A stretch of 64,000 nt of DNA from positions 52,905-116,904 of the forward strand of contig JACPAL010000005.1 of the NCBI GenBank assembly GCA_016180855.1, given 5' to 3'. Below are positions 8,108 through 11,161 of the stretch, piece by piece (position 1 is the stretch's first letter; each line of letters opens with the position of its first letter). Both the position numbers and the translations under genes were made by a program. The DNA comes from Deltaproteobacteria bacterium. Lineage in GTDB: Bacteria > UBA10199 > JACPAL01. The notes under the pieces are model-generated. The model was not told the DNA's origin and made no database searches. It saw only the letters and a program-made list of their open reading frames with translations.

Positions 8108-8127
8108 AAAGACTGTCCCTCTGGCAC

Positions 8128-8146
8128 CCGATCGCGAGGAAGGTTT
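8128..8146. repeat. 19-bp direct repeat CCGATCGCGAGGAAGGTTT, copy 1 (upstream of the DUF4143 ATPase gene)
   Basis: Identical 19-mer recurs at 9405-9423; the pair brackets the ATPase gene. Confidence 0.8.
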
Positions 8147-8225
8147 AAGAAAATCGGAGAACCCGATATATTCTATAAGAAAACCAACTTGCATATAGTT
8201 CGATCATATGAAACCATAGATTCTT

Positions 8226-9368
8226 ATGGTAGAACGTCCGTTTTGGATAGGCCTTCTTCTGGAGGCCCTCAAGAAGCGCCCGATTGTTTGGCTGGCAGGG
8301 GTCCGGCGGTCGGGGAAAACCTCTCTCTGTCGCATGCTCTCCGGAGTTCGATACTTCGATTGTGAATTACCATCGGTGCGCCGAGAGGTTGAGAGCGAGA
8401 GTTTCTGGGAGGGGCAAAAGAAACAAACAGTCATTCTCGATGAAATCCATCGTCTCTCTCACCCCGCCGAAATTTTAAAAATTGCTGCCGATCATTATCC
8501 TTCGATCCATGTCATCGCGACTGGGTCCTCAACTCTGGCTGCTACAACCAAATTTCGCGACTCCCTGACCGGGCGAAAAACGCGTATCTGGCTGACTCCG
8601 GCAAACAGCCTCGATTCGCAAGTTTTTGGGATTGGGGACTTTAAAAAACGTCTCCTCCTCGGGGGGCTTCCTCCGTTTCTTCTCGCAGATCAGTGGGACG
8701 AATCGGCTTATCAGGAATGGCTGGATTCCTTTTGGTCCCGAGATATTCAGGAATTATTTCGATTGGGCAATCGGTCTTCTTTTCTCAAGTTTTTTGAACT
8801 CCTCATGGCGCAGAGTGGCGGTATTTTTGAGGCTCAGAAATTTGCCAGCCCTTGCGAAGTGAGTCGTCCTACGATTTCAAATTACCTTGCCGTCCTGGAA
8901 ACAACCCTGACGGCCCATGTGATTCGTCCTTATTCCAAACGTCTTGCGACCGAGATAGTAACGGCCCCAAAGGTCTTCGGTTTCGATACCGGTTTCGTCT
9001 CCTTTGCCAAGGGGTGGACAACCCTTCCTAACGACCATGCAGGTCTTCTCTTCGAACATTGGGTTCTGAATGAATTTCACTCTGTCTTGCAAGAAACTTC
9101 CCTCAATTACTGGCGGGATAAGGCGGGGCATGAAATTGATTTTGTCTGGAAGAGGCGTGGCAAACCACCGGTTGCGATTGAATGCAAGTGGCATCAAGAC
9201 CAGTTTGATGATTCTTCATTGAGAAGTTTTCGTCATCGCCACCCTGAAGGGGAGAATATTCTGATAACGGCGAATCAGCCGGGGAAGCGCTTGATCAAAA
9301 AAGGGCCACTCGAAATTATCCACTTAGGTCCCGAATCCGTACGCGATTGGATTCAGTCGAAGTACTAA
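8226..9368 (+). CDS. AAA+ ATPase of the DUF4143 family (ATP-binding protein), paralog 1
   Basis: Walker A (AGVRRSGKTSL) and Walker B (VILDEIH); C-terminal part typical of DUF4143/ArsR-like ATPases; paralogous to 28615-29829. Confidence 0.75.
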   Translation: MVERPFWIGLLLEALKKRPIVWLAGVRRSGKTSLCRMLSGVRYFDCELPSVRREVESESFWEGQKKQTVILDEIHRLSHPAEILKIAADHYPSIHVIATGSSTLAATTKFRDSLTGRKTRIWLTPANSLDSQVFGIGDFKKRLLLGGLPPFLLADQWDESAYQEWLDSFWSRDIQELFRLGNRSSFLKFFELLMAQSGGIFEAQKFASPCEVSRPTISNYLAVLETTLTAHVIRPYSKRLATEIVTAPKVFGFDTGFVSFAKGWTTLPNDHAGLLFEHWVLNEFHSVLQETSLNYWRDKAGHEIDFVWKRRGKPPVAIECKWHQDQFDDSSLRSFRHRHPEGENILITANQPGKRLIKKGPLEIIHLGPESVRDWIQSKY

Positions 9369-9404
9369 GCGTGCCTGATGGAACCGGCGTTGGTCCCCGG
9401 TTAT

Positions 9405-9423
9405 CCGATCGCGAGGAAGGTTT
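9405..9423. repeat. 19-bp direct repeat CCGATCGCGAGGAAGGTTT, copy 2
   Basis: Exact match to 8128-8146. Confidence 0.8.
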
Positions 9424-9459
9424 GACTTTGGAGGCCGGCTTTCCTAAAGGTATGCCTTC

Positions 9460-9873
9460 ATGAAATTAATTCTTACCCCGCTTGAAAAGGCGTTGAAGCA
9501 GCTTGAGAAAGGCCTTTGGTACCTTACCTCCAACGAAAGTCAAAAAGATAGTGAGTTGCGTGAGCAATTCCGGGCTGCGGTGATCCATGCGTTTGAATTT
9601 AGTTTTGAATTGTCCTGGAAACTGCTGAAGCGTTATCTCGAAAACTACAGTCTTGAAAAAGTGGATGGGTTCACGACAAAGCAGCTCTTCCGCGTTGGAT
9701 TTGAACAAGGTCTGATTCGCGATCCGAATGCCTGGTTTGATTATCTGGAGAAGCGGAACCCGACGACCCACACTTACGATGGTGCCGTGGCCGAACGTGT
9801 CTACGAGGGGGCGAAGGGATTCTTGCGGGATGCCCAGGATCTACTTCAAAAACTAAAATCAAAGACCGCGTGA
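9460..9873 (+). CDS. HepT-like toxin / nucleotidyltransferase substrate-binding protein (HI0074 family)
   Basis: About 137-aa all-helical protein with NTase_sub_bind-like blocks; overlaps the partner gene by 4 bp. Confidence 0.65.
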   Translation: MKLILTPLEKALKQLEKGLWYLTSNESQKDSELREQFRAAVIHAFEFSFELSWKLLKRYLENYSLEKVDGFTTKQLFRVGFEQGLIRDPNAWFDYLEKRNPTTHTYDGAVAERVYEGAKGFLRDAQDLLQKLKSKTA

Positions 9874-10190
9874 TCGACCTCCCCCCCCATCATCTTACAA
9901 CAGTCCGTCGGATCCTTGCCGATACGATCCCCGGGTATGAGGTTCGGGTCTTTGGTTCGCGAGTCACCGGCACCGCAAAACCCCACTCCGACCTTGATCT
10001 CGCCGTCGTTGCCGATCACCCGCTTGACCTCAAAACATTGAGTCGCCTCCGTGAGGCGTTTGAGGAGTCGGACCTGCCGATTCGGGTTGATCTGGTAGAA
10101 TGGAACTCGATCAGCGATGAATTTCGCAAGGTGATCGAGGAAAGTTACGAAATCATTTTGGAGGGGGAGAATTCATCCCCAGGACCGTAG
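9870..10190 (+). CDS. MntA-like minimal nucleotidyltransferase antitoxin (HI0073 family)
   Basis: Pol-beta-type NTase motif GSRVTGTAKPHSDLDLAV. Confidence 0.7.
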   Translation: MIDLPPHHLTTVRRILADTIPGYEVRVFGSRVTGTAKPHSDLDLAVVADHPLDLKTLSRLREAFEESDLPIRVDLVEWNSISDEFRKVIEESYEIILEGENSSPGP

Positions 10191-10192
10191 AT

Positions 10193-10217
10193 CTCTACAT
10201 CGTGGCCACCCCGATCG
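10193..10217 (+). other. 25-bp duplicated fragment of the rsmI 5' coding end (encodes LYIVATPI), immediately after the mntA stop
   Basis: CTCTACATCGTGGCCACCCCGATCG here versus CTCTACATCGTTGCCACTCCGATCG at 10495-10519 in rsmI (23/25 identical). Confidence 0.75.
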
Positions 10218-10264
10218 TAAGTTTTGCAGGACGCCACTTGCTTTTATCTGGAACTTTTCTGTTC

Positions 10265-10280
10265 TGGTGTGCTAGAATGG
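10265..10280 (+). promoter_or_regulatory. Possible sigma-70 extended -10 element (TGcTAGAAT) for the rsmI leader
   Basis: gtgtgcTAGAATgg about 200 nt upstream of the rsmI ATG; -35 is weak. Confidence 0.3.
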
Positions 10281-10312
10281 TTCTTGTGTCTATAAAACGT
10301 ATTTATCCGCCT

Positions 10313-10345
10313 CCGCCAGAAAACCCTGCCGTCTTGCGGCGGGGA
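10313..10345 (+). repeat. 33-bp hairpin repeat unit 1 (CCGCCAGAAAACCCTGCCGTCTTGCGGCGGGGA) in the rsmI leader
   Basis: Stem CCCUGCCG/CGGCGGGG with loop UCUUG; repeated at 10400-10432 with compensatory stem changes. Confidence 0.7.
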
Positions 10346-10399
10346 TGAATGGTCCGGGGATTCGAAGCATTGGCAGAGGAGGGTCGGGGCTACGGGGAT

Positions 10400-10432
10400 T
10401 CCGCCAAGAAACCCCGCGGTCTTGCCGCGGGG
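10400..10432 (+). repeat. 33-bp hairpin repeat unit 2 (CCGCCAAGAAACCCCGCGGTCTTGCCGCGGGGA)
   Basis: Perfect 8-bp stem CCCCGCGG/CCGCGGGG, same UCUUG loop. Confidence 0.7.
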
Positions 10433-10483
10433 AGCTTCATTTCAATAAGTTAAAAGTAGAATACTTGCGGAAATTTTTTTAAC

Positions 10484-11161
10484 ATGTCCGGCACCCTCTA
10501 CATCGTTGCCACTCCGATCGGGAATCTCGAGGACATCACACTTCGGGCACTACGGATTTTAAAAGAGGTCGATCTCATTGCCTGCGAAGATACGCGTCAC
10601 ACACGAAAATTGTTGACCCACTATGAGATCACAAAACCGCTCGTGAGTTACTTTGAACACAATAAGATCACTCGGGGAGAACATTTGATACGTCAGCTTA
10701 AGGAAGGGAAGTCGATCGCCCTCGTCTCGGACGCCGGGACACCGGGAATCTCCGATCCCGGGTACAATCTTATTCACTCCGTTCTGGAGGAGGGGATCGA
10801 GGTTGTTCCGATTCCTGGCCCCTCCGCGGCGATTGCGGCGTTGTCGGCCTCCGGACTTCCAACCGATCAATTTCATTTTGTCGGCTTTTTGCCTCTTAAA
10901 GAGGGGAAGAAGAGACGTCTGCTGGAGTCGCTTAAAGGGGAGGGGGCAACTCTTGTGGTGTATGAGTCCCCTTTTCGTGTCCGGAAAACCCTGCAGATCG
11001 CCCTTGAACTGTTTGGCAACATCCCGTCTGTTGCGGCACATGAATTAACGAAAATTCACGAGGGGTTCTTTCGTGGCCCACTAGCCGATCTTCTCCCAAA
11101 GATCGGAAGGGATGTCCCTGAAAAGGGGGAATGGATCCTTCTTTTTGGTCTTCAGCGGTAG
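10484..11161 (+). CDS. rsmI: 16S rRNA (cytidine1402-2'-O)-methyltransferase
   Basis: Tetrapyrrole-methylase-fold RsmI blocks (LYIVATPIGNLEDIT; ACEDTRHTRKLL; SDAGTPGISDPG). Confidence 0.85.
   Translation: MSGTLYIVATPIGNLEDITLRALRILKEVDLIACEDTRHTRKLLTHYEITKPLVSYFEHNKITRGEHLIRQLKEGKSIALVSDAGTPGISDPGYNLIHSVLEEGIEVVPIPGPSAAIAALSASGLPTDQFHFVGFLPLKEGKKRRLLESLKGEGATLVVYESPFRVRKTLQIALELFGNIPSVAAHELTKIHEGFFRGPLADLLPKIGRDVPEKGEWILLFGLQR

Follow-up and report, generated by a model that had tools for sequence, protein, structure and literature searches.

We analysed a stretch of 64,000 nt (hereafter, the window) from a Deltaproteobacteria bacterium (GenBank assembly GCA_016180855.1, contig JACPAL010000005.1, positions 52,905 to 116,904), in which a small islet of accessory genes separates anmK from rsmI. 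The islet contains a gene for a 380-aa ATPase with AAA_14 and DUF4143 domains, followed by a pair of genes for a HEPN protein and a minimal nucleotidyltransferase (MNT), a candidate toxin and its candidate antitoxin. Features of the locus are listed in Table 1. The open reading frames had been described in the same way in an initial annotation made from the sequence alone, which placed the ATPase gene at 8226-9368, the overlapping pair at 9460-10190, and the rsmI start at 10484.

A string search of the window located a perfect 19-nt direct repeat, CCGATCGCGAGGAAGGTTT (core CGATCGCGAGGAAG), at 8128-8146 and 9405-9423, exactly where it had been annotated. The two copies bracket a single gene, that of the ATPase. 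When both strands of the 64 kb were searched with up to three mismatches allowed, these two matches were the only ones, and two matches were obtained in 0 out of 100 shuffled sequences. A second repeated element, the 25-nt sequence CTCTACATCGTGGCCACCCCGATCG, begins 2 nt past the MNT stop codon (10188-10190). As annotated, it matches codons 5-12 of rsmI (10496-10520) at 23 out of 25 positions and still translates as L-Y-I-V-A-T-P-I; its genuine rsmI counterpart lies 303 nt downstream. In addition, an 8-nt direct repeat, CCCGATCG, is present at both ends of the islet (8127-8134 and 10210-10217). At the locus, a tRNA scan revealed no tRNA, searches in both E-value and gathering modes revealed no Rfam family, and a GC profile revealed no GC shift. 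A promoter and terminator scan of the locus was uninformative.

Table 1. Features of the anmK-rsmI locus and observed or predicted junction sequences (a slash marks the junction; L061 is a contig from a related genus and MAG1 a nearly identical strain, both described in the text)
Feature	Position	Strand	Evidence or remarks
anmK, conserved left flank	6965-8107	+	Pfam AnmK 4e-99; NCBIfam
CCCGATCG, left copy of the 8-nt direct repeat at the islet ends	8127-8134	+	inference
nadE 3'-end fragment, copy 1	8128-8148	+	19-mer+TAA, H-P-I-A-R-K-V-stop; left islet junction
Module 1 cargo, AAA+ ATPase (AAA_14) with DUF4143 / PD-(D/E)xK-type C-terminal domain	8226-9368	+	Pfam
HEPN-MNT module, laterally shared	9402-10159	+	90-93% nt identical to L061 9898-10699 (blastn, codon comparison)
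nadE 3'-end fragment, copy 2	9402-9425	+	TAT+19-mer+GA, Y-P-I-A-R-K-V-stop; left end of HEPN-MNT module
HEPN toxin candidate, HI0074 family	9460-9873	+	PF08780 3e-33; TIGR01987; RNPTTHTY (Rx4HxY)
Minimal nucleotidyltransferase, HI0073-like antitoxin candidate	9870-10190	+	PF01909 8.9e-15; PDB 1no5 5.5e-27
rsmI 5' fragment (LYIVATPI)	10193-10217	+	23/25 to 10496-10520; ends in CCCGATCG (10210-10217), right islet junction
Resident rsmI upstream region	10218-10483	+	two related hairpins, 10313-10345 and 10401-10433
rsmI, conserved right flank	10484-11161	+	TIGR00096 250 bits; Pfam/NCBIfam
MAG1 allele at first junction			...GGTTT/AGATTTCGAATGAAGGAT
Predicted islet-free junction			...CCCTCTGGCACCCGATCG/TAAGTTTTGCAGGACGCC
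Predicted DUF4143-free junction			...GGCACCCGATCGCGAGGAAGGTTT/GACTTTGGAGG
Predicted circle junction of the DUF4143 module			...CCCCGGTTATCCGATCGCGAGGAAGGTTT/AAGAAAATCGG

The 19-nt repeat is the end of nadE

The closest homologue of the HEPN protein (92% amino acid identity) is encoded on a 275-kb contig (L061) of the metagenome-assembled genome (MAG) GCA_016180845.1, which belongs to a related genus. The gene order there is nadE - HEPN - MNT - a 581-aa gene on the minus strand - a pair coding for a 78-aa protein and a PIN protein - rsmI, with purU, rpsP, a KH gene, and trmD further downstream. The L061 nadE gene (8275-9921) is intact and codes for a 548-aa protein, and its genuine 3' end is the 19-mer: the last codons, ggt cgg cgc tat ccg atc gcg agg aag gtt tga, read GRRYPIARKV*. 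Conservation of this C-terminus, ...SKAFGIGRRYPIARK(V/I), extends to about 50 of the nearest NadE homologues. The 19-mer comprises the six terminal codons of nadE, for P-I-A-R-K-V, and the first base of the stop codon. In the window, a copy of the final 19-22 nt of nadE, (Y)PIARKV and the first stop base, stands in front of each of the two modules, while nadE itself was not found in the 64 kb.

Three copies of the motif, with 0, 3, and 2 mismatches and all on the plus strand, are present in L061, where they bound the HEPN-MNT pair, the 581-aa gene, and the VapBC-like 78-aa/PIN pair. The array ends at rsmI. The degenerate copy after the MNT gene matches at 16 of 19 positions. The third copy, which lies upstream of the PIN pair, comprises 51 nt of nadE; compared with the live nadE end, it has seven differences, six of them at third-codon positions (P=0.007). 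To judge from this pattern of mostly third-codon differences, the fragment is derived from another functional nadE allele, as expected for a gene end carried by an element. The 78-aa/PIN pair (13251-13864 of L061) abuts rsmI, the PIN stop codon overlapping the rsmI start (ATGA, 13861), and toxin-antitoxin modules are found directly upstream of rsmI in both genera. The 581-aa gene product is TSP_3/DUF4215-like and is unrelated to a 485-aa cysteine-rich protein encoded in the window (see below).

In the DNA searched, the 19-mer was not a frequent motif. Beyond the copies described, nothing within three mismatches was present in the 64 kb or in 524 kb of other fetched loci. In JGI metagenome contigs, 13 matches were found, each single and inside an unrelated coding sequence, which is approximately the number expected by chance; the three matches in IMG/VR were also single.

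The HEPN-MNT region of the window is 90.6% identical to that of L061 over 700 nt, and the 44-nt leader (9402-9445) is 93% identical, while housekeeping DNA (rsmI, purU, and trmD) is only ca. 64-71% identical between the two contigs. Within the HEPN gene, 26 synonymous and 11 non-synonymous codon differences were counted. The 19-mer upstream of the L061 pair has the same TAT prefix and GACTTTGG suffix as the window copy. The final ca. 10 codons of the MNT gene (10160-10190) are not common to the two. Because the identity of the HEPN-MNT genes is far above that of the housekeeping genes, the comparison points to a recent lateral exchange of the HEPN-MNT module together with its piece of nadE. 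Downstream of rsmI, the window and L061 are syntenic; upstream of it synteny is lost, and the array therefore lies at a rearrangement break-point.

These results bear on the proposal of the initial annotation that one or two insertions occurred straight into the rsmI 5' region, under which the 19-mer would be a target-site duplication from the DUF4143 insertion and the 25-mer a duplication from the toxin-antitoxin insertion. A perfect 19-nt repeat around a single gene and a copy of the rsmI 5' end upstream of the real one are what such events could leave, and a known class, insertion with long target duplication, described for restriction-modification systems, has long repeats that overlap gene ends and flank selfish modules (Furuta et al. 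2010; PMC2853133). As in that class, the modules studied here are small, presumptively selfish, and devoid of mobility genes, and the repeats correspond to a gene 3' end. However, the 19-mer is nadE coding sequence, and it stands with the same flanking nucleotides before HEPN-MNT in another genus; therefore, it arrived with the module and was not copied from a local target. The sharing of the repeats between genera, their movement together with the module, and the synonymous differences among the L061 copies point to copies carried by the elements and speak against duplication in situ. In the known class, a repeat of more than 30 bp is present once in an empty genome that is otherwise identical; the window repeat has 19 nt, the L061 repeat has ca. 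51 nt with synonymous-site differences, and no empty site was recovered. Finally, the rsmI fragment brackets neither module. Since the 19-mer is a nadE terminus that recurs at module boundaries in L061, we do not regard it as a duplication of local sequence produced by insertion into rsmI, and rate that explanation as distinctly improbable.

Content of the islet varies between strains

The proteins MBI2066975-79 of the window's own MAG are encoded on a 157-kb contig, and fragments of three close MAGs were available for comparison. In one of them, GCA_016187815.1 (MAG1, contig L034), the sequence is 99.8% identical to the window over positions 1-8147 and diverges at 8148, one base after the first 19-mer. 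The MAG1 sequence runs ...CCGATCGCGAGGAAGGTTTA/GATTTCGAATGAAGGAT, and the part past the junction is unrelated to the window up to the contig end. A resemblance of the 18-nt continuation in MAG1 to the region upstream of a second DUF4143 gene of the window was considered and rejected, as it was within the shuffle null. AnmK is identical in MAG1 and in Logan contigs, and on the other side of the islet, positions 10363-10483 are conserved in a third MAG (MAG3, contig L051; 98.4% identical).

Logan contigs are built with k=31 (PMC12424806). One of them, L037, covers exactly positions 8118-9431, i.e., from 8148-30 to 9401+30, which is what one branch of a bubble would produce. Another, L035, likewise stops at 9431 (9401+30). 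Contig starts near 10413-10440 were also considered as cassette junctions and rejected, since a 1-nt indel polymorphism explains them. In a 15-billion-protein collection, neither HEPN nor MNT had a member with at least 90% identity in any other assembly. Because of the L034 divergence, the ends of L037 and L035, and this lack of close relatives, we conclude that strains differ in what lies between anmK and rsmI and that the break-points fall at the repeats. Yet another Logan contig, L036 (SRR12113433; window positions 5320-8114), ends 13 nt before the first 19-mer, which suggests a further variant that diverges 8 nt past the anmK stop codon.

Two proposals of the initial annotation are strengthened by these data. 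That the repeats are insertion junctions agrees with the divergence of a near-identical strain and the contig ends found at them; that the ATPase and toxin-antitoxin genes are accessory cargo agrees with the same polymorphism and with the identity of the HEPN-MNT genes to those of L061, ca. 90% compared to ca. 64-71% for housekeeping genes. A scan of GTDB species representatives with AnmK gave a best match of 59% identity, and none of 30 loci had rsmI, DUF4143, HEPN, or MNT genes near anmK; therefore, an empty site could not be found in this way.

The codons that follow the core differ between modules. The stop codon directly after the core is TAA in the DUF4143 module of the window, TGA in the HEPN-MNT module, and TAG in the alternative module of MAG1, so that the junctions read HPIARKV-TAA and YPIARKV-TGA in the window and PIARKV-TAG in MAG1. 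The probability that all three modules supply a stop codon at this place is about 0.007 if they are independent.

The DUF4143 ATPase

The ATPase matched the PADLOC candidate family PDC-S01 with an E-value of 1.6e-46. Its Walker A (GKT) and Walker B (DE) motifs and a D305...E319-x-K321 motif are invariant in 32 homologues, and DUF4143 is catalogued within the PD-(D/E)XK superfamily (PMC3424549). A confident AlphaFold2 model (pLDDT 89) has the archaeal AAA+ protein SSO1545, RuvB, and Orc1/Cdc6 as its nearest folds in the PDB; a sequence search yielded no solved structure for the AAA_14+DUF4143 family. The protein shares with COG1373 / AAA_14+DUF4143 ATPases (PDC-S01) both Pfam domains, the conserved Walker A and B motifs, and the D...ExK motif. 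By its family assignment, the predicted ATPase-nuclease is a defence candidate in the PADLOC sense. Only two DUF4143 matches, both distant (24-28% identity), were obtained in a plasmid collection.

The union of an AAA+ ATPase with a conserved PD-(D/E)xK-type motif raised the question of whether the gene could mobilise itself, by homing or in a transposase-like manner, and duplicate a 19-nt target. Its homologues at 55-78% identity number more than 7000 and are spread across many phyla, and the five closest contexts that were read are mutually unrelated. However, around these five genes (73-76% identical) there are neither flanking direct repeats of more than 9 nt nor terminal inverted repeats, and in L061 the repeat found in the window also flanks modules without DUF4143. 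Self-mobilisation is thus very unlikely, and we conclude, because the five close homologue loci lack flanking repeats, that the ATPase gene is mobile cargo and not a self-inserting element. Insertion of an insertion sequence or DDE transposon, recognised by terminal inverted repeats, a transposase, and a target duplication of less than 15 bp, was also rejected: no inverted repeat longer than 9 nt was present across the DUF4143 flanks, the repeat is 19 nt long, and no transposase domain was found.

A second AAA_14+DUF4143 ATPase gene lies in the window at 28615-29829, on the minus strand between ychF and mrp. Its product is 25% identical to the islet ATPase and retains an EID...IExKW nuclease-like motif.

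The HEPN-MNT pair

The HEPN protein (137 aa) scored 88 bits against TIGR01987, the HI0074 family model (cut-off 55.8), which was its best match, and it had no match to PF01934 (DUF86/HepT). Its nearest solved relatives are TTHA0048 (PDB 1wty), HI0074 (1jog), and 8xdj, a chain deposited as 'HEPN toxin'. The RNPTTHTY motif, at residues ca. 109-116, aligned to RNLTNHTY of TTHA0048. In the MNT (106 aa), the GSx10DxD motif, GSRVTGTAKPHSDLD, could be read straight from the sequence, and the score against the MntA model NF047752 was 49 bits, below the cut-off of 60. The HEPN gene comes first, and the two genes overlap by 4 nt.

The pair had been labelled a HepT/MntA type VII toxin-antitoxin system. 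The HEPN-MNT operon and the analogy at the family level stand, but the label itself does not, given the missing PF01934 match and the MntA score. With type VII HepT/MntA, HI0073/HI0074, and other MNT-HEPN modules the pair shares a small Rx4HxY HEPN, a GSx10DxD MNT, overlapping genes, and a patchy, mobile distribution; it differs from type VII HepT/MntA in its HEPN family (PF08780/TIGR01987 and not DUF86/HepT), in its HEPN-MNT gene order, and in an MNT that scores below the equivalog cut-off. On family matches, we classify the pair as an HI0074/HI0073-type HEPN-MNT module and not as a member of the DUF86 HepT family. By analogy, HEPN would be an RNase toxin restrained by the MNT, possibly through MNT-catalysed AMPylation. 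The islet cargo as a whole probably acts as addiction or defence genes.

Neighbouring genes and repeats

Upstream of rsmI, a 33-nt element occurs twice (10313-10345 and 10401-10433). Each copy forms an 8-9-bp GC-rich hairpin with the loop TCTTG, and the stems show compensatory differences (C-G to G-C). The element is unique to this place in the window and has no Rfam match; the two copies may serve rsmI as a regulatory or a terminator pair. Upstream of anmK, a 125-aa open reading frame (6537-6914, plus strand) has a signal-peptide-like N-terminus and an extremely cysteine-rich C-terminus (...AACDDDCNWCCCDSNGQNCRCC). It has no Pfam match and is called as a gene in Logan contigs as well. The 485-aa cysteine-rich protein mentioned above is encoded at 11152-12609 on the minus strand and has no Pfam domain; its gene contains a 127-nt tandem duplication (11948-12074 and 12080-12206, 88% identity).

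A 105-nt inverted repeat, 97% complementary, has its arms 16 kb apart, at 13874-13978 and 29937-30041. The first arm lies between a sigma-54 activator gene and an open reading frame at 14156-15424 and is also present in MAG3 contig L051; the second lies between the second DUF4143 gene and the mrp/ParA-like gene. The repeat matches no Rfam family, and its fold signal is weak (z about -1.4). Either a small repeated element or the two ends of a 16-kb segment capable of inversion could account for it.

Discussion

On balance, and with moderate confidence, we interpret the islet (8128-10217) as a small, strain-variable, horizontally acquired set of two independent modules, probably a piece of an array built up at a nadE end. 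The nadE stop-codon region would be the docking site in this lineage, because copies of the gene's 3' end separate the modules and show allele-like divergence. The repeats would be att-type scars of successive site-specific integrations into this region, in which each incoming element brings its own stop codon, and the outcome would be a tandem array that is now integrase-less. This mechanism of integration is one that we infer. Direct repeats of a gene 3' end between accessory modules are a signature of site-specific integration, tandem accretion, and decay into cis-mobilizable elements (CIME) (PMC5704250). In CIME accretion, known from ICESt1/ICESt3 at fda and from tRNA/ssrA islands, target 3'-end repeats likewise separate modules, incoming DNA reconstitutes the gene end, modules lack integration genes, and the repeats differ slightly, as though they came from different hosts (PMC5704250). 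In the present case, copies of the target 3' end are found at module boundaries throughout, two in the window and three in L061. The intact target adjoins the first repeat in L061, while in the window anmK precedes it. Polymorphism is seen at the repeats, as L034 diverges at 8148, L037 ends at them, and the module shared with L061 starts at 9402. The differences from CIME accretion are that the target is the nadE stop-codon region, that each module is of cassette size (0.8-2.4 kb, a single gene or operon), that no integrase was seen nearby, and that the window array is no longer beside nadE. In the literature searched, no report of either rsmI or nadE as an integration site was found.

How the array came to lie between anmK and rsmI is a separate matter. 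In L061, nadE and rsmI bracket the homologous cassette array, and the islet of the window ends in an rsmI 5' fragment. Because the L061 array ends at rsmI, this fragment more plausibly represents the right-hand end of such an array than the footprint of an ATPase or toxin-antitoxin insertion; with the non-shared tail of the MNT gene (10160-10217 in all), it resembles the right edge of an array in a donor. In the lineage of the window, detachment of the array from nadE and its placement between anmK and rsmI might have come about through recombination at the heptamer CCGATCG, which is common to the nadE end and the rsmI 5' end: homology to nadE at the first junction starts at this heptamer, and homology to rsmI at 10193-10217 ends at it. 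This excision and joining step is speculative. The similarity between the 8128 junction and the rsmI 5' end is marginal (p 0.01-0.06, varying with gap costs) and provides a hint only.

Several observations weigh against the interpretation that we favour. No integrase, transposase, or other recombinase was found among ca. 45 scanned window genes or in 20 kb of L061. An empty site, a circular junction, or an excision product did not turn up in the contigs available (raw reads and the remaining parts of the genomes lay outside the search). The array model rests on two genomes, with one distant relative (L061) and the fragments of three close MAGs as comparisons. The window repeat is short, and nadE is absent from the 64 kb, with anmK in front of the first copy. 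The CCGATCG step amounts to a 7-8-nt coincidence and marginal alignments (p 0.01-0.1), and the window has 15 instances of the heptamer on its plus strand. Lastly, the first 19-mer is still a boundary of variation though no nadE precedes it, which needs either a site that is still active or an unexplained exchange.

In an extended version of this reading, the nadE stop-codon region (core CGATCGCGAGGAAG) would serve as the attachment site for a cassette-capture system not described so far. Single-gene defence or toxin-antitoxin modules lacking an integrase of their own would be put in, piled up, and exchanged through a recombinase supplied in trans. In function such a system would resemble an integron, with a linear gene-end site in place of attC hairpins, and in this lineage the site would still be active though detached from nadE. 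We regard this extended version as unlikely.

Integrons proper invite comparison as well. Integron cassettes are co-oriented, mostly single-gene, include toxin-antitoxin modules, and have a recurring boundary sequence. The islet could accordingly be a cluster of attC sites lacking an integron integrase (CALIN), with the 19-mer lying within attC sites, since it too consists of co-oriented single-gene or single-operon units with a conserved sequence at each boundary. However, there is no IntI in the scanned genes, and the boundary is a gene terminus, being nadE coding sequence. Single-stranded DNA folds of four junctions, on both strands, revealed no attC-like imperfect hairpin spanning the motif, which lies outside any conserved stem; the fold z-scores at the window junctions were -1.6 to +0.03. 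We rejected the attC reading and consider a CALIN an extremely improbable explanation.

Alternatively, no dedicated site may be involved. The region upstream of rsmI could be a recombination hotspot in which strains exchange modules through either homologous or illegitimate events, and the pieces of nadE and rsmI would be flanks of the donor loci that were passively carried along. HEPN-MNT modules are known to undergo recent insertions and deletions in otherwise syntenic loci (PMC2701414). The absence of a recombinase from the scanned genes and the inclusion of a non-coding leader in the module shared with L061 also suit this view. On the other hand, five junctions in two genomes share a core that always points the same way and coincides exactly with a module boundary; a stop codon is contributed right after the core by each of three modules; and strains diverge within one base of the core. 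Furthermore, 19 nt is too short for efficient RecA-mediated exchange. Passive carriage therefore appears doubtful to us, if still worth considering.

The locus would add to a known type of genome architecture an example in which the nadE end is the site, the modules are cassette-sized and integrase-less, and exchange has taken place between genera. Two aspects of the approach may be of use elsewhere. Orphan repeats beside accessory genes can be decoded by translation and comparison with conserved gene termini, and the ends of De Bruijn-graph contigs, with their k-1 offsets, reveal cassette polymorphism in metagenomes. In these uncultivated 'Deltaproteobacteria' from groundwater, a repeat that is the end of an essential NAD-synthesis gene would tag the docking, stacking, and inter-genus movement of small defence and addiction modules. 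Should a dedicated recombinase come to light, the end of nadE would count as a new docking site on the chromosome for cargo of cassette size.

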